From positions 1 to 6,092 of the IMG/VR virus record IMGVR_UViG_2667527717_000005: DNA of 6,092 nt. The stretch is one strand, 5' to 3'. The translations under genes were made by a program, and so were the position numbers. Origin of the DNA: a virus (taxonomy: Duplodnaviria; Heunggongvirae; Uroviricota; Caudoviricetes). How positions within the stretch are numbered: position 1 is the stretch's first letter; each line of letters starts with the position of its first letter. Under the pieces are notes generated by a model, which had not been told where the DNA came from, did not search any database, and was given only the letters and a program-made list of their open reading frames with translations. Positions 1 through 6,092 of this stretch are shown piece after piece.

Positions 1-139
1 ATCCGCATTTTACTGCCGCTGACGCTGGCCATCCTCGACGGCATGTCCGTACGCGTTGCGGATGAAGTTTTCATTCTGCCGCTGAATGCTGTCATGGAAT
101 CACTGTAACCCCGCGAAGCCGATCTGCATCCACTGGCCG
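1..139 (+). pseudogene. cheA: 3' fragment of a cheA-like chemotaxis histidine kinase gene (end of ATP-binding domain into start of CheW-like P5 domain); in-frame TAA at 106-108; homology ends at 139/140
   Basis: Plus frame 1 translates as IRILLPLTLAILDGMSVRVADEVFILPLNAVMESL*PREADLHPLA. This matches, from memory, the conserved segment of enterobacterial CheA that follows the G2 box (as I recall ...TIRILLPLTLAILDGMSVRVADEVFILPLNAVMESLQPREADLHPLAGGERV...). The frame stays CheA-like for 10 codons after the TAA, then diverges at 139/140. Fragment runs off the left edge of the window. Confidence 0.55.
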
Positions 140-994
140 AAGTTTCACAATCCCTTTTTGTGTCAGGGTACCGTCAGGAATACTCGTAATCTGTCCCCAG
201 GGGTGCGTATGACTACCCGCAGCCTTACTATTCGCCAGGTCATATGCCGCCTTCACCGCGCTCGGAGTCGCCGCCTCTGTCGTGCTGTTGCTATTGGTCG
301 CGTTACTAAGCTTCACAATCCCTTTTTGCGTCAGTGTGCCATCTGGTATATCAGTAATCTGACTCCAGGTATGACGATGATTTCGAGCCTCAATCAGTGC
401 CGCTTTCACCGCTTTTGGCGTAGCCGCTTTGGTTTCGTCATCACTGTCAGTGGCGTTACTCAACTGCGTAAAGCCTTTTTGTGTCAATGTAGCATCAGGG
501 TGGTTAGTCGAATGTTCGTGTTCATCCAGTTGCGAATCGACGTAATCCCGTGTTGCCAGCACAATACTGGGATCAACGGTGAGTGTTACCGCAGTCGTGT
601 TGGACACTTCCATAATGAGACGAATGCAAACTTGCTTACCGCAGCCGCCGGGTAATAGCGGTTTATACGACTCCGGGAATTTACCGATAGCAATGAGTTC
701 ACCATCGGTATCAAAAACGCCGACTTCACGTATATACCAGCCGCCGATATTTTCGGGCAGTACAAGTTCCGCAATTAACCAGCTAGGATTATTGGGCGCA
801 ACTGTTAATGTATTTAAATCACCGCGCCAGACCTCATGGCGTAATTTAGTTTGACTCGCCGTGGGTTCATAATATTGCCCACCGCCGTCTCCAACGGCCA
901 TCTTTTGCAGATGCAGTTGTTTTTTATCCGCAAGAGCACTGGCAATTTTTGCCATCCCTCTATTGGTCAGGAGGGTATAAAATTCATTATCCAT
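92..994 (-). CDS. Phage tail fiber protein, truncated (P2 gpH-like N-terminal baseplate-attachment domain plus about 2.5 fiber repeats; no receptor-binding C-terminal domain)
   Basis: 300 aa ORF. N-terminal motifs MAVGDGGG, HEVWR, IAELVLP and ESYKP follow the pattern of the P2 gpH / Mu S tail fiber N-terminal domain. It is followed by repeats of the TLTQKGxxxLSNAT...AATPxAVKAA type. Start ATG at 994 has GGAG 6 nt upstream. Residues 286-300 (RPVDADRLRGVTVIP) and the TGA stop are encoded by the antisense of the cheA-like fragment. Confidence 0.85.
   Translation of the reverse strand: MDNEFYTLLTNRGMAKIASALADKKQLHLQKMAVGDGGGQYYEPTASQTKLRHEVWRGDLNTLTVAPNNPSWLIAELVLPENIGGWYIREVGVFDTDGELIAIGKFPESYKPLLPGGCGKQVCIRLIMEVSNTTAVTLTVDPSIVLATRDYVDSQLDEHEHSTNHPDATLTQKGFTQLSNATDSDDETKAATPKAVKAALIEARNHRHTWSQITDIPDGTLTQKGIVKLSNATNSNSTTEAATPSAVKAAYDLANSKAAGSHTHPWGQITSIPDGTLTQKGIVKLRPVDADRLRGVTVIP
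140..520 (-). repeat. Imperfect tandem tail-fiber repeats inside the fiber gene (2 full units of about 51-56 codons plus a third unit cut off after 13 codons)
   Basis: Plus-strand motif ttcacaatccctttttg occurs at 144-160 and 312-328 (168 bp apart), with the related cctttttgtgtca at 474-486. Extended alignment of 140-200 against 308-368 is about 73% identical. At protein level: HPDATLTQKGFTQLSNAT..., DIPDGTLTQKGIVKLSNAT..., SIPDGTLTQKGIVKL|. Confidence 0.75.
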
Positions 995-996
995 AA

Positions 997-1629
997 TTAC
1001 TCCGGGTAAATAGATGTAATTTCAAGGCTCCATTGCCCTGTTCCGTAATAGATTGATGTGTTTTGCTGTACTTCCCGTATCTGGAAAGGTAAAACCGACG
1101 TCAGTTCACCACCATAAAGTGCACAACCAATAACAGGAATAGCACTTTGGTTAATGATCCAGACAATTAATGCTTCCAGTTTTGAACGTGTGTTTTTATA
1201 TTTATGAATGAGTTCTACCAGATTATTGAAAAGGTTTTCATCCATGCCTTTATCCACCAGCTCTATATCAACCTTAAAAAAATAAGCCTTCCCCCCATAT
1301 TCAAACCATTCTGAAATAGTTCCTGGTAATGAGAGTATTTCCAGCACCCGCCGTACCGCCCAAATCGTTCCTTTATATTTATGCAGCTCAATGGCTTGCT
1401 TAATTAGCTCGCGCTTCTCCCGTTCATCGGTGGTAAATAACCAACCTTCCAGCCCCTGAACGTGAAATTGTTCTGCAAGGGCTGGTAATGCCGAAGCATC
1501 AACCAGGTCGACCAGATAAACCATCAACGCCGTAAGATCGAGTTGGGCAAAACGCTCGGCGGCGATATTTGCCAGAATCGAAAAACGCTCATCGCTGGCA
1601 AGCGGCGGCGGTGGCAGCAATTTATCCAT
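997..1629 (-). CDS. Baseplate/tail protein, P2 gpI-like
   Basis: 210 aa ORF directly upstream of the fiber gene, the conserved gpI position. Contains an HKYKGTIWAVRRV motif resembling the gpI-family HxxGT(I/V)xA(I/V)RR region. Its stop TAA (997-999) lies 2 nt from the fiber ATG, and its start overlaps the J stop by 8 nt (ATGGATAAA). Confidence 0.8.
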   Translation of the reverse strand: MDKLLPPPPLASDERFSILANIAAERFAQLDLTALMVYLVDLVDASALPALAEQFHVQGLEGWLFTTDEREKRELIKQAIELHKYKGTIWAVRRVLEILSLPGTISEWFEYGGKAYFFKVDIELVDKGMDENLFNNLVELIHKYKNTRSKLEALIVWIINQSAIPVIGCALYGGELTSVLPFQIREVQQNTSIYYGTGQWSLEITSIYPE

Positions 1630-2737
1630 CGCTAACTCCGGCGATCGTTACGTCTATTGCAGTGCATTCCGCCCATTCATGCGCCTGCAAAATACGTTTT
1701 GTAGGCAAGTTCAGCACAACGTCATAGACGCCATCGACCTGTAACACTTTGATTATCTGGTTTGGCACAATGTCCTGCCCCAGATGTTTCTGCCGCTGTT
1801 GCGTCCAGAGGCTAATCGCTTTACGCGCCGCAGCCAGAGTTGTCTCCTGATCGGCGGTGGTAAACAGCGTTAGCTGCGCACGGATCTCATACGGCACTCG
1901 AAGAGCGCATTTCGCACTCACTTTGTCGGTCAGCGGACGTTTTTTCTCCTTGCTAACCTCCTGTTCGATTTGCGCGAGCAGTTCTATTCCCGGCAGTCCG
2001 TTCAGGGTTAGCGGGTAGATCTCCACGCAGCCTTCTGGCAATCCCTCGTCCGGCCCCAGTACTGCAACGTCAATAATCGACTGGCTTACGGAAAGCGTAT
2101 GAAAGCGGTAGGCACCATAGCTGCCCGCATTACTAAAGCTTTCTGGTGCCAGTTGGATACGCTGGCGCAATGCGTCATCGCTCTCTTCACCGCAGCCGCC
2201 CGTTGACGCAGTCAGGTTGATTACGTTGATGTCATAATGACCAATCCTGTCGACCAGAGCGCTAATTTGTGCAGGCTGCCAGCCGTTACCCTGTTCACCT
2301 GCTGCGAGGCTGGTGGCAGGAACGGCGATATGCAAACTCCTGGCCGGGAGCAGAACATCTTCATCGGTGGCGAACATCACGCTATCAGAGGCACTGGCCC
2401 GCGTCCCCTGGGGAATCAGGATATTGCTGGTATACGCACTGACAACCGAAAACTGCAACGTCGTTTTTGCTGACTGCGCAGGCAAACGATGAACGCCCAC
2501 CAGCTCCCCTAAATAATCCAGCATTGGCGCGCGGGAATACGCGACCAGGTTCTGTTTCGCCGCTTCCTGAATGGCGATGCGTACAAGGTTTTCACGATAG
2601 GCAAAAAGGTCAATCAGCAACCGCTCGGCCTGTGCCGGGTAGAGCTTTTTGCCGCTGGCATCTTCGTATTGCGCAATCATCTCGCTGGTAATTTGCGCAG
2701 GATCGCGTTCAATAAAATTGGGTTCGGCTATCGCCAT
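1622..2737 (-). CDS. Baseplate J-like protein (P2 gpJ / Mu gp47 / T4 gp6-like wedge protein)
   Basis: 371 aa ORF with a central SFSNAGSYGAYRFHTLSV region that resembles the conserved gpJ-family core. Sits between the W-like and I-like genes as in P2. Start overlaps the W stop by 10 nt. Confidence 0.85.
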   Translation of the reverse strand: MAIAEPNFIERDPAQITSEMIAQYEDASGKKLYPAQAERLLIDLFAYRENLVRIAIQEAAKQNLVAYSRAPMLDYLGELVGVHRLPAQSAKTTLQFSVVSAYTSNILIPQGTRASASDSVMFATDEDVLLPARSLHIAVPATSLAAGEQGNGWQPAQISALVDRIGHYDINVINLTASTGGCGEESDDALRQRIQLAPESFSNAGSYGAYRFHTLSVSQSIIDVAVLGPDEGLPEGCVEIYPLTLNGLPGIELLAQIEQEVSKEKKRPLTDKVSAKCALRVPYEIRAQLTLFTTADQETTLAAARKAISLWTQQRQKHLGQDIVPNQIIKVLQVDGVYDVVLNLPTKRILQAHEWAECTAIDVTIAGVSDG

Positions 2738-3087
2738 AACACCTCCGTTGAGTTGATTACGCCGTCAGCGGCGCGCCATTGCACACGTAACGTCAGATGT
2801 TCACCGTCGATTACAGGTGTCACCTTCAGCAACCGGCAGCGCGGTTCCCACTGGCGGATGGCCTCTACCGACTCCCGTACCACATGCGGGATCGCCCGCT
2901 CGATGGGATAATCGATGTAGTGCCACAAATTGCTGCCAAACAGCGGTCTGTGGGGATCACTGCCGCGCGGTGTACGCAGAATGATGTGTATTGCCTGGTG
3001 AATATCATCCAGTCCGCAGACGTATTCTTCAGGCCGCTGCAAGGCCGGTTGCCAGTGCAGCGTTGAGGGGCGTGTTTTTGTGTTCAT
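2728..3087 (-). CDS. Baseplate wedge protein, P2 gpW / T4 gp25-like
   Basis: 119 aa ORF, the size and position typical of gpW (between V and J). Contains a gpW-like IxxILxTPxGS core (IHIILRTPRGS). Start ATG at 3085-3087. Confidence 0.8.
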   Translation of the reverse strand: MNTKTRPSTLHWQPALQRPEEYVCGLDDIHQAIHIILRTPRGSDPHRPLFGSNLWHYIDYPIERAIPHVVRESVEAIRQWEPRCRLLKVTPVIDGEHLTLRVQWRAADGVINSTEVLWR

Positions 3088-3150
3088 GAGGGTATTTTCG
3101 CCCTGACCGGGCTGTGGAGATATTAAAGCGATTTAGAAAACTGATTGATT

Positions 3151-3184
3151 AAAAAGAGAAAACCCGCTATCAGGCGGGTTAAAA
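3151..3184 (-). terminator. Candidate rho-independent terminator or attenuator directly after the spike gene, between V and W
   Basis: On the minus strand, immediately 3' of the V stop: TGA-c-tttt-AACCCGC-ctgata-GCGGGTT-TTCTCTTTTT. That is a 7 bp GC-rich stem (3161-3167 pairing with 3174-3180), a 6 nt loop, then a run with 8 of 10 T. Seen directly in the sequence; function is inferred. Confidence 0.45.
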
Positions 3185-3185
3185 G

Positions 3186-3887
3186 TCAGTGTGAATGGTG
3201 GTTGGAGTTGCCACCGCTGTCCTGCAATGCGCCGCTGGCCTGAACGTTGCCGATCACGTTGACATTGCCGGTTATCGTGGCGGCGTTACCGATGCCTCCA
3301 CTTCCTGCCATCCCACCAAGCCAGGTGAGTTTTTTCATCACCGTGACGTTGCCGGTAAAGGTACTGAGCGGTGCGTCTACCGTTACAGCCATCGCTTTAA
3401 CATCGACCTTACTGGCTTCAATGCTGACGTCGGTGGCTTTCACATCAACAGTGTCGGAAGTCACGGTGACGTGTTGGGCTTTAACCTCAACGTTGGGCGA
3501 TATCAGGCTGGTACGGTCGATAACCTCAATCACGATTTTTTCGATACCACCGTTAATCGTAAGCTGGTGGGTGCTGCGGTCATATTCAAACGCTGCGCCA
3601 TCGGAAAACTGGACATAGCGTTTGTCGCGCGATGCTACTGGCGCGGTATCTACCGTTGAATATACTGCGCCCAGCACCACGCCATCTTCACCGTTATCAT
3701 CCAGCAGAACCTCCACCTGCTCTCCCATGTCCGGTAGCCAGTAGTCTTTATTGTCCTGGGAATTGCGTTGAAGTACCGCAAGCCAGTTGCTCTTCAGATT
3801 GTCACACTCTGGAAGCGTGACTCGCACCCGAACGCTGGTTTCGTCAATATCGCTGATAATCCCCGTTTGCCGGGTTACTCCTTTCAT
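3186..3887 (-). CDS. Baseplate assembly protein V (central spike, P2 gpV-like)
   Basis: 233 aa ORF with an N-terminal OB-fold-like region (WLPDMGEQVEVL, GVVLGAVYS), then short V/T-rich beta-helix-like repeats (VDVKATDVSIEASKVDVKA, GNVTV, GNVNVIGNV), and a C-terminal His cluster NHHSH. A strong Shine-Dalgarno AAGGAGG lies 5 nt upstream of the ATG. Confidence 0.88.
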   Translation of the reverse strand: MKGVTRQTGIISDIDETSVRVRVTLPECDNLKSNWLAVLQRNSQDNKDYWLPDMGEQVEVLLDDNGEDGVVLGAVYSTVDTAPVASRDKRYVQFSDGAAFEYDRSTHQLTINGGIEKIVIEVIDRTSLISPNVEVKAQHVTVTSDTVDVKATDVSIEASKVDVKAMAVTVDAPLSTFTGNVTVMKKLTWLGGMAGSGGIGNAATITGNVNVIGNVQASGALQDSGGNSNHHSH

Positions 3888-3900
3888 ATTTCCTCCTTAC
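3888..3900 (-). promoter_or_regulatory. Ribosome-binding site for the V gene, overlapping the stop codon of the D gene
   Basis: Minus strand reads TAAGGAGGAAATATG: the D stop TAA is followed directly by AAGGAGG and then the V ATG after a 5 nt spacer. Confidence 0.7.
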
Positions 3901-4937
3901 TGGCTGGTCGCTGGCCCGCGTGACACGTCGATTTCAGTGGTATAGCCGCTGCGCACAAAACTGTGAGTAGATTTATCAATCAGCCACTGACCGGAAAGCA
4001 CGCCAAAATCGGTCAGTTCAATTTTATTGCCCGCCGTCAGTTCCGGGCAGCCCATCATTGTGAGCGTTCCGGTTTGCTGATATTCGTTGTGGCTGTCGAG
4101 TGCAGCGTTGGCCTTTGCCTGTGCTGCGCCAATGTCCGTCGCCCGACTGTTCAGTTTTAGCGTGTCGGCACTGGTGCCGACTCCACGGGCAGACGGTTTT
4201 TGCTGGCTGTCGTGGGTGTAGATAACCAGTTCTTTTTTCTTACTATTTTGATGCTGTACGGTGGCGTTTTTGTAGATACGGTTAATGGTATCTTTGAAGG
4301 TGAAATGCGAAACGTCTTTGCGGTCGATCGTTTTTACCGGTGCCAGGCAGCGCAGCGTGGGTAAATGTGAAAAAATCAGCTCTTTTGTCGTCACTTTTAC
4401 GGCATAACCATATTCACTGGCCAGACGTTTGAGAAATCCAACATCGGTTTCACCATACTGCGTTACCCGGTCGATGGTGAGCGGCTCGATTTTGCCCACC
4501 AGTTTCAGACCGTGCGTTTGCGCGATACGGCTGGCGATAGCCGAAAGCGTCGTCTCTTCAAAGCCCTGGCTGTTACGCGTGCGTAGCGCCTGATTGACGG
4601 AAGTGGCGATGCCATCAATATTTACCGTAGAAGGTGGCGATGAAATATCAATTTTATCAATAATATACTGACCACAATCGAGCAGCTTTTCCCCCTGATA
4701 ACCCATATGCAGCGCCAGCGTATCGCCTTTGCCGGGATACCACTCTTTTATCCAGCGTCCATCGGTGTCATCCAGTGTAATCGCGATGGTATCCGACTCG
4801 TTTTTAATACTGTCCTGGTAACTGATGCTGGTGACATAAGGCGTGATGTCATAAGTGATATCTTTATGCCCATACCAGAGGGTAAAAATGGGCGTGAGTG
4901 TTGCAAAGACGCCGCCAGTTACGCTTATCTCAGCCAT
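3897..4937 (-). CDS. Tail protein D (P2 gpD / Mu gpP-like late control D protein; baseplate hub)
   Basis: 346 aa ORF in the conserved position between X and V. Size and layout are consistent with the gpD family. Start ATG (4935-4937) lies inside the last codons of X (13 nt overlap), with GGAG upstream. Confidence 0.8.
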   Translation of the reverse strand: MAEISVTGGVFATLTPIFTLWYGHKDITYDITPYVTSISYQDSIKNESDTIAITLDDTDGRWIKEWYPGKGDTLALHMGYQGEKLLDCGQYIIDKIDISSPPSTVNIDGIATSVNQALRTRNSQGFEETTLSAIASRIAQTHGLKLVGKIEPLTIDRVTQYGETDVGFLKRLASEYGYAVKVTTKELIFSHLPTLRCLAPVKTIDRKDVSHFTFKDTINRIYKNATVQHQNSKKKELVIYTHDSQQKPSARGVGTSADTLKLNSRATDIGAAQAKANAALDSHNEYQQTGTLTMMGCPELTAGNKIELTDFGVLSGQWLIDKSTHSFVRSGYTTEIDVSRGPATSQ

Positions 4938-5134
4938 GGTGGGATCTCCGATAAGGTTTTATTGACGGAAATGACCGGAATGATGAGCTGAATACCGGAA
5001 GGCAGTACCGGATAAATGGCGACATGTGGATTGGCTGCGATAATGCGTTCATAAGCCAGTGCATCGCCGTAGTAATGCCAGGCCAGGTTATCCCAGCGTT
5101 CGCCATCGGTGGTGATATGTTCAAGGTATCGCAT
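4925..5134 (-). CDS. Tail protein X (P2 gpX-like small LysM-like protein)
   Basis: 69 aa ORF with a WHYYGDALAYERIIAANP motif resembling the gpX-family YYG...AANP signature. Its ATG shares a base with the U-like gene stop (TAATG at 5132-5136). Confidence 0.8.
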   Translation of the reverse strand: MRYLEHITTDGERWDNLAWHYYGDALAYERIIAANPHVAIYPVLPSGIQLIIPVISVNKTLSEIPPWLR

Positions 5135-6087
5135 TACCAGCTCCTCGTAATGGTCGCGGCAGCAAGCTGGCTCACTGCGGGAGTGGTTTGTTGTACCGTT
5201 GTTCGTGCCTGATCAACCAACGTTGCGGCTTTATCAAACGTCGCTTCGGCGATGTTGCTGGCAATGTCGTCGAAAAGTGTCTGAGCATGGTCAACCAGCG
5301 TACTGGCGTCATTGGCGCAGTCCCGTATACCTGGCATGTTACCCAGTAAAGCTTTAATCTGAGCCGACAACGCTTTTGGGAGTCCTGCCAGCATTTGCAG
5401 ATCCATTGGCTGTTTAAACAGGGTTTCGATGGCGTCGATAGTCTTTTTCAACGACGTAATTATCTTTTCACACTTTTCTTTTAACGCTTTGGCCTCTTTA
5501 ATCAGTGCTTTCACTTTTGCCACTGTTTTTTTAATATCTTCAATGGTTTGCGCCAGTTCATCGAGCATCTCTTTGGCTTTGCGCATACCTTCTTCAATGG
5601 CGTTCAATATCTGATACAACCAGGACTCCACCTTATTCGGAAAATCGCTCGCCTTTTCCTCGATATTAGGCTCCTGGGTGGTAATTGCCGGGGGCAGCAG
5701 TGGGTTTTTCGGATCGCCGGTATACTCCTGGAGCGACATTGTTCCGCTTTGGGCAATGACATTGCCCCAGGGATCGGTGTGCTGGTGAGTGGCGGTTAAC
5801 TCTGTAATTACAAACCAGCCGCGATAATCTCCGTTGCCAAACACCAGCGCCATTGCTTTGTGAGCAAGCATGGCTTCACGCAGTCGATTCAGCTCTGTTG
5901 TGGGTTGGCAAAACTGGCTGTGCAGGGAAAATTCCAGCGCCAGCATATCCAGCTTATCGCCAATAAACTGCACGCCGGGTTTGCCTTCTATACGGGCATG
6001 TGTGGCGTAATCCACGCCCATTGTGCTTTTAAAGCCGTCCCAGAATGTGACAACTTTAAATTCAATCTCTCCTAAAACGGCATACAT
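5134..6087 (-). CDS. Tail protein with a P2 gpU-like N-terminal region and a long coiled-coil C-terminal extension (possibly Mu DNA-circulation-protein-like)
   Basis: 317 aa ORF. The N-terminus (MYAVLGEIEFKVV...GDYRGWFVITELTATH) resembles gpU-family proteins and the gene sits directly upstream of X and D as in pyocin-type clusters. The C-terminal 170 or so residues are K/E/A-rich with heptad-like periodicity. Start ATG at 6085-6087 is 5 nt from the window edge, so the true start is not certain. Confidence 0.6.
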   Translation of the reverse strand: MYAVLGEIEFKVVTFWDGFKSTMGVDYATHARIEGKPGVQFIGDKLDMLALEFSLHSQFCQPTTELNRLREAMLAHKAMALVFGNGDYRGWFVITELTATHQHTDPWGNVIAQSGTMSLQEYTGDPKNPLLPPAITTQEPNIEEKASDFPNKVESWLYQILNAIEEGMRKAKEMLDELAQTIEDIKKTVAKVKALIKEAKALKEKCEKIITSLKKTIDAIETLFKQPMDLQMLAGLPKALSAQIKALLGNMPGIRDCANDASTLVDHAQTLFDDIASNIAEATFDKAATLVDQARTTVQQTTPAVSQLAAATITRSW

Positions 6088-6092
6088 CAGGC

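Follow-up and report, generated by a model that had tools for sequence, protein, structure and literature searches.

The 6,092-nt stretch analysed here, referred to as the window, contains a blunt join at 139/140 between a fragment of the chemotaxis gene cheA and a truncated P2-type tail fibre gene in the opposite orientation. The chances seem about even that this is a real, homology-independent junction and part of a mosaic in which a segment of tail genes lies between ldtA and inverted cheA. The most sensible interpretation is that the join marks an end of a small non-homologous rearrangement or is an assembly or library artefact, and it does not represent a new biological system. The window is the reverse complement of the whole WGS draft contig CDRS01000334.1 (6,092 bp; assembly GCA_000939135.1); the cheA fragment forms its terminal 139 nt, and the join therefore lies only 139 nt from a draft contig end. 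The closest complete genome was that of E. coli strain A10 (NZ_CP028764.1, 4.98 Mb), whose tail cluster differed from window 140-6092 by 1 mismatch in 5,953 nt. The A10 tail-locus stretch was used as the reference and is called L001 below; its position 8294 corresponds to window 2433 and to A10 4628932.

Megablast against annotated cheA assigned window 1-139 (plus strand) to codons 501-546 plus 1 nt of this gene. The fragment was 99.3% identical to A10 2125401-2125539 and matched annotated cheA in 5,377 of the 5,426 complete E. coli genomes, with a top identity of 99.3%. Its frame 1 reads IRILLPLTLAILDGMSVRVADEVFILPLNAVMESL, a stop and PREADLHPLA, which equals CheA 501-546 except for the replacement of Gln536 by the stop, as the sequence-only reading had proposed when it described the left side as cheA with an in-frame stop. 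Pfam placed HATPase_c at 372-508 and CheW at 514-640 of A10 CheA, and the fragment spans the end of the former and the start of the latter (the P5 or CheW-like domain). By sequence identity and by a frame in register with the P4 and P5 domains, it belongs to CheA. The stop is an ochre codon, TAA in place of CAA, at window 106-108 (plus strand). It results from C106T, the sole mismatch of the fragment to A10 cheA, and was present in no complete genome (the best identity among the 5,377 cheA-matching E. coli genomes being 99.3%), which argues that the cheA piece is not contamination from another strain. In other E. coli strains, stand-alone C-terminal CheA fragments of 101 and 104 aa (P0256 and P0257) are annotated on 44 and 21 contigs, respectively, indicating that disruption of cheA upstream of codon 550 recurs.

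On the minus strand, window 92-994 encodes a chimeric, truncated fibre ORF of 300 aa, designated H'. It consists of 285 fibre codons followed by 15 codons of antisense cheA (RPVDADRLRGVTVIP) and TGA, so that residues 286-300 and the stop are supplied by cheA; both the truncation of the fibre on the minus strand and the cheA origin of its last 15 codons and stop had been predicted correctly. H' contains the tail-collar N-terminal domain PF12571 at residues 1-150 (E 9e-62) and two hits of PF03406 (Phage_fiber_2), whereas the intact fibre gene encodes 589 aa with four Phage_fiber_2 repeat hits. The tail-collar domain, the Phage_fiber_2 repeats and the location downstream of J and I identify window 140-994 (minus strand) as a P2-type tail fibre gene. 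Window 140-369 (minus strand) is a remnant of the fibre tandem repeat and holds 1.37 units of 168 bp (56 codons). TRF analysis of the intact A10 fibre gene gave a period of 168 and 2.8 copies at L001 5765-6230, and the array extends past the join. The direct repeat formed by window 140-212 and 308-380 showed 77% identity, and its homology begins at 140, exactly where the earlier comparison of repeat copies had put it. The end of the 300-aa chimeric fibre is not a native terminus. It had been pointed out that the join would be discredited if 1-139 bore no similarity to CheA or if related intact fibre genes continued through 139 to 92; 1-139 is cheA, and intact fibre genes do not extend into 139-92. 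In its C-terminal half (L001 5086-5700), the intact fibre is rich in glycine, with up to 9 consecutive Gly residues. In many public draft assemblies the fibre gene is broken at residues 387-400, which has generated a cluster of 102 partial proteins.

All BLAST matches ended exactly at 139 or began exactly at 140, which bears out the abrupt junction noticed at this position. The join connects A10 2125539 on the plus strand to A10 4631225 on the minus strand. No microhomology was found at 139/140: wild-type cheA reads CCG/GCGGCG across the break point and the wild-type fibre strand GTTATT/AAGTTT, with no common base. No IS element, transposon end, target duplication or inverted repeat was found at the join, and the cheA and fibre matches each reach the join itself, unlike what an IS- or transposon-mediated rearrangement would leave. 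Collinearity is thus lost at a single base without a repeat, an IS element or microhomology, as in a real non-homologous structural variant. Likewise, there is no common k-mer or repeat able to mislead an assembler (0 bases at 139/140, 1 nt at the ldtA/J join described below, and no repeats). None of the 5,426 complete E. coli genomes spans the join, and in none was there a place covering 80% of window 1-200. A junction-pattern search detected neither the cheA/fibre nor the ldtA/J join in species-representative genomes or metagenome contigs, and the ldtA/J join was absent from the complete genomes as well.

Upstream of the fibre gene, the minus strand of the window encodes tail protein I (Tail_P2_I; 997-1629), baseplate protein J (1622-2737; 371 aa, with precomputed Pfam Baseplate_J families) and a tail module of W/gp25 (2728-3087), V (3186-3887), D (3897-4937), X (4925-5134) and U (5134-6087). 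The gene order W-J-I-H is the same in the window and in A10. Gene I carries a clone-specific substitution at window 1203, the first base of a minus-strand codon, which should alter protein I. An exact look-up of this protein I variant retrieved nine contigs, the sister contigs among them. The look-up of the 300-aa chimeric fibre protein returned the window contig and one other, CCBS01000432.1 (L004; 2,435 bp; GCA_000938175.1), which is identical to window 1-2435 and has the same join, C106T and contig end. The join, C106T and the contig end were therefore found in two differing contigs (6,092 and 2,435 bp) and also in a third sample. The join was present in 2 contigs from 3 samples, which may share read sets, and was absent from L012, L013 and a Logan contig. 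In CDRV01000159.1 (L012), J, I, the 589-aa fibre and the DUF4376 gene are fully intact, and the contig runs on to yjbD and rluF. In CCBT01000187.1 (L013), the fibre and distal genes are intact and the first 136-137 nt are foreign to the tail cluster. This foreign end is 100% identical to ldtA (A10 1,989,856-1,989,992, plus strand). Its fusion point with J is at L001 8294, one base being ambiguous, and corresponds to a switch at window 2433/2434. The window runs unbroken through 2433/2434, and L004 ends 2 nt beyond this position, at window 2435.

The two joins delimit a segment of 2,294 bp at window 140-2433 (minus strand), which comprises the 3' two-thirds of J, all of I and the 5' half of fibre gene H and is called segment S. 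At its J end, S is followed by the rest of J or by ldtA, and at its H end by the rest of the fibre or by inverted cheA. The flanks were J and cheA in the window, a contig break and cheA in L004, ldtA and fibre in L013, and J and fibre in L012. The four assemblies thus cover all four flank combinations, which clonal inheritance of single-copy variants could not produce; they point to a segment with two contexts in the reads that was threaded arbitrarily by the assemblers. The sequences and coordinates of both junctions, their recurrence and these flank combinations were read directly from the assemblies. The DUF4376 protein occurs in 897 blocks and the full fibre on 238 contigs, both too common to single out these assemblies. 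The WGS prefixes CCBS/CCBT versus CDRS/CDRV may represent two assembly rounds of the same isolates, and if the CCB and CDR records were assembled from the same reads, the recurrence is not independent. The right end of the window contig lies 5 nt beyond the U start codon, at a place where the A10 sequence is single-copy. Contig ends at window 6092 (L001 11953) and at L012 position 1 (L001 11120) both fall in such single-copy sequence, and identical contigs recur in 2-3 samples of these assemblies; either these are further break points of the cluster or the same data were assembled more than once.

In A10, cheA (2,123,901-2,125,865) and the fibre gene (4,630,371-4,632,140) are both on the plus strand and lie 2.5 Mb apart. 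The window joins plus-strand 2,125,539 to minus-strand 4,631,225, which makes an inversion-type junction across 2.5 Mb. The sequence-only reading had named, as one origin of the junction, a deletion or rearrangement that removed the distal fibre, any chaperone and the 3' end of cheA. A plus-to-minus join between these two genes excludes a deletion, and the supposed loss of the distal fibre and chaperone is not supported by the sister assemblies, which still carry the 589-aa fibre and the adjacent DUF4376 gene. The distance from ldtA to cheA in A10 is 135.5 kb around the flagellar region; the interval contains Asn tRNAs, a myovirus prophage, ompC, dcm/vsr, rcsA and fliR-fliE, with motAB-cheA at its end. 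Expressed in A10 coordinates, the joins run from 1989992 to 4628932-4631225 and on to 2125539 downwards, and this is the geometry that the left junction would have if 1989993-2125539 were inverted and S inserted. The ldtA/J join in the sister assembly is thus geometrically consistent as the partner junction, although the linkage of the two on one molecule is inferred. The chance of a second random partner as near to the first is 0.054. The motif GCCAGTG ends the ldtA flank (L013 130-136), and the inverted cheA flank begins with CG-GCCAGTG (window 131-137, reverse complement). In a simulation on E. coli sequence, a shared 7-mer in windows of 9-10 nt had a chance of about 0.0006-0.001, for a motif noticed post hoc. 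Through this motif the outer ends of the putative mosaic could pair; its two occurrences belong to separate genes and therefore do not represent a target duplication. Beyond GCCAGTG, the four break points had no common motif among restriction sites, invertase sites, Chi-like logic and hairpins. The break in ldtA falls at codon 236/237, between YkuD (97-230) and Ldt_C (235-303), and that in cheA after codon 546, within the CheW-like P5 domain (514-640). The prophage in the ldtA-cheA interval of A10 is located at tRNA-Ser/mtfA (2009484-2053563) and has lambda-like head genes and a contractile tail module. With its V-W-J-I-H genes it was considered as a source of a second S copy and rejected, as it has no DNA similarity to the window.

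Exact look-ups were carried out for 17 predicted complete, chimeric or cut products in a collection of 15 billion proteins. Nine complete chimeric genes, predicted on the assumption that the proteins of the clone equal those of A10, were all absent. Absent products included LdtA' (241/240 aa), CheA' (535 aa), three chimeras of the second junction, the 144-aa reciprocal product of a modelled 2.5-Mb inversion, and the deletion-scar products (J of 101 aa, fibre of 308/306 aa). These negatives on predicted chimeras are weak, as the CheA of the clone might differ from that of A10 elsewhere. Six cut products were absent as well, including the known 50-aa product of L013, which indicates that cut products are not indexed and makes those negatives uninformative. 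The collection did contain the distal fibre ORF and two cheA 3' fragments that are junction-independent, in each case from other strains. The complete chimeric LdtA' could not be resolved by protein search, E. coli LdtA being collapsed into one cluster of 6,777 members. That neither CheA' nor LdtA' was found fits reads that also hold wild-type cheA and ldtA, and thus favours a duplicated mosaic, a mixed culture or an artefact over a clean single-copy inversion.

In the reading to which we give about an even chance, breakage and homology-independent rejoining in one E. coli clone would have created the cheA/fibre junction. A 2,294-bp copy of J'-I-H' from the tail-only, tailocin-like cluster would have been placed between broken ldtA and inverted, broken cheA. 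This could have come about through a 135.5-kb inversion of the flagellar and chemotaxis region with S caught in the joint, or equally as an extra duplicated mosaic. The reads would then show S both in the tail cluster and in the mosaic, and short-read assemblers would thread these two contexts arbitrarily. The window would be one such thread, running from the tail cluster through S into the cheA tail, and its connection of 140-2433 to 2434-6092 may be that of the other copy. We infer from the junctions and their flanks that both junctions share a molecule, and likewise the inversion, the number of S copies and how the ends were joined. Several points argue that the junction is real. A blunt join without a shared k-mer, IS element or repeat needs spanning reads in a graph assembler; the same join, C106T and end recur base for base in differing contigs; the ldtA/J and cheA/fibre joins delimit one segment with correlated partners; the four flank combinations fit a segment with two contexts; and C106T, absent from the 5,377 genomes, speaks against contamination from another strain. 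Against this, the tails are short and nearly equal (139 and 136-137 nt) and the contigs stop there, which resembles a technical limit. The protein I variant also occurs in a strain from another project, and the Logan contig of that strain is unbroken through the J position. The predicted complete genes are not on record, which is weak evidence, and the joins are absent elsewhere. Homology-independent joins are rare in E. coli.

Alternatively, the 139-nt cheA and 136-nt ldtA tails could be chimeric contig ends, and the genome would then have a normal tail cluster and normal copies of cheA and ldtA. Scaffolding or gap filling, chimeric library molecules or a common contaminating product could be the source. 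Such an assembly or library artefact, which the sequence-only reading had also raised in the form of an assembly chimera, is a serious alternative, though we consider it the less probable one. The foreign tails sit at contig ends, have nearly equal lengths and lead into no further sequence, the assemblies are highly fragmented (contig numbers 159-432) and also break in single-copy sequence at L001 11120 and 11953, and sister assemblies have an intact fibre gene. The predicted complete chimeric genes are not on record, the join is absent everywhere else searched, and C106T could have arisen as an error where the tail had little coverage. However, random chimeras do not recur base for base across assemblies, would not mark both ends of one 2,294-bp segment, and are not expected to pick partners 135 kb apart with a common 7-mer. 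There is also no common sequence to mislead a graph assembler. The tail lengths fit no single odd k, since tails of 139 and 137 nt need even and unequal k (106 or 140, and 138, respectively).

The two contexts of S might instead arise in a mixed culture, in which some cells had undergone a balanced four-break cut-and-paste that moved S into the inverted ldtA-cheA interval and the rest were wild type. The assembler would then meet a fork at each break point, with the same graph topology as for a duplicated S, which explains the four flank combinations, the short tails and the unassembled complete CheA' and LdtA'; the blunt joins fit end joining of four breaks. This alternative is nevertheless quite improbable, since several samples, each of a kind usually grown from a single colony, would have to contain the same mixture, the expected deletion scar in the tail cluster (J of 101 aa; fibre of 308/306 aa) is not on record, and there is no recombinase or repeated site to make the event frequent. 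It is also unlikely, if a little less so, that a natural E. coli clone underwent a chromothripsis-like event. Such an event would comprise four double-strand breaks, in ldtA, in cheA and at two sites in the tailocin-like cluster, that were rejoined without homology. It would include a 135-kb flagellar inversion with the 2.3-kb baseplate/fibre piece in the joint, GCCAGTG at the outer ends and the C-to-T change 33 nt from the break. The least probable explanation is a one-step deletion or a single 2.5-Mb cheA-fibre inversion with S in single copy. Taken by itself, the plus-to-minus geometry is what an inversion of A10 2125540-4631225 would give at its left junction. Orientation and distance exclude the deletion, and the inversion leaves the ldtA/J join and the four flank combinations unexplained, has a reciprocal 144-aa chimeric gene that is not on record, and would shift oriC far off centre, as judged from the K-12 map.

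The putative rearrangement resembles alternative end joining of E. coli in its blunt or 1-nt joins, the lack of an IS element or repeat, the unrelated piece between broken genes and the inversion-type geometry. In 2010, Chayot et al. reportedly described illegitimate recombination by such end joining in E. coli, including the capture of chromosomal fragments at the joint. That process is known mainly from induced laboratory breaks, whereas the putative joins here are known from assemblies. The pattern also resembles misthreading at a repeat or fork, in that one segment has two left and two right neighbours, the assemblies pick different pairs and the foreign parts are short ends. In a normal collapsed repeat, the alternative flanks are those of a phage or an IS element; here they are the interiors of two core genes, and therefore a rearrangement or an artefact must have made the second context. 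Like the invertible fibre segments of Mu, P1, e14 and p15B (Gin/Cin/Pin/Min), the rearrangement alters the 3' part of a myovirus fibre gene. In contrast to those systems, the fibre gene is here joined to a chemotaxis gene that lies 2.5 Mb from it, and a truncated fibre results. No invertase or recombinase is annotated between the Mor gene and the slipin gene in A10, and no inverted crossover sites were present at the join.

If the join is real, the fibre copy is truncated and without its receptor-binding half, the cheA copy is dead twice, by the ochre codon at 536 and by the break after codon 546, and the ldtA copy has no C-terminal domain. Chemotaxis signalling, the C-terminal domain of the L,D-transpeptidase and one fibre copy would then be lost in a single clone. 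This would be an instance of homology-independent joining, which is rarely documented in wild E. coli, and of modest interest for research on genome rearrangement. If the four-break event were true, it would document a complex rearrangement of the end-joining type in a wild enterobacterium that lacks Ku/LigD. If the join is an artefact, it serves as a practical warning: public protein collections already contain the 300-aa "fibre" and a 35-aa cheA fragment from this contig, and neither should be given a biological interpretation. As a feature the join is of an ordinary kind, a chimera or structural break close to the end of a draft contig, and only a confirmed four-break event would be moderately interesting. 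Under every reading the path through the window is questionable, and 140-2433 and 2434-6092 may not be physically continuous on the cheA-carrying molecule. The continuity of the contig across 2433 is thus not to be trusted, whether the join is real or an artefact.

The cluster from which S derives occupies about 15.6 kb in A10 (4617562-4633202), between lysC and yjbD/rluF, and was present in 195 of the 5,426 complete E. coli genomes. It encodes a Mor-type activator, a holin, a lytic transglycosylase, Gp37, sheath, tube and tape measure proteins, U, X, D, V, W, J, I, the fibre, the DUF4376 protein and a 151-aa protein. The A10 tail cluster contains no head, terminase, integrase or replication genes. 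Its gene content suggests an R-type tailocin locus or the remnant of a prophage. The cluster, as distinct from the join, resembles R-type tailocin loci such as that of R-pyocin in its tail-only gene set without head, terminase, integrase and replication genes. It may, however, be a decaying prophage remnant, J being frameshifted in some isolates. A literature search for a lysC-yjbD tailocin in E. coli and for the assembly accessions returned nothing relevant. In Logan contigs, J is split into two ORFs (123 or 119 aa and 251 aa) at L016 9622-10756, L018 5557-6671 and L019 5602-6716, and gene I is split too in L018. These split genes of other isolates suggest decay of the cluster in some lineages. 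The 251-aa J' in the Logan contigs was considered as independent support for the break in J and was rejected, because it is the frameshifted J of other isolates. Genes for a slipin (Band_7) and an RlaP-type nucleotidyltransferase directly adjoin the tail cluster (L001 2086-4010; A10 4633216-4635140), and these two genes might be cargo or a defence pair.
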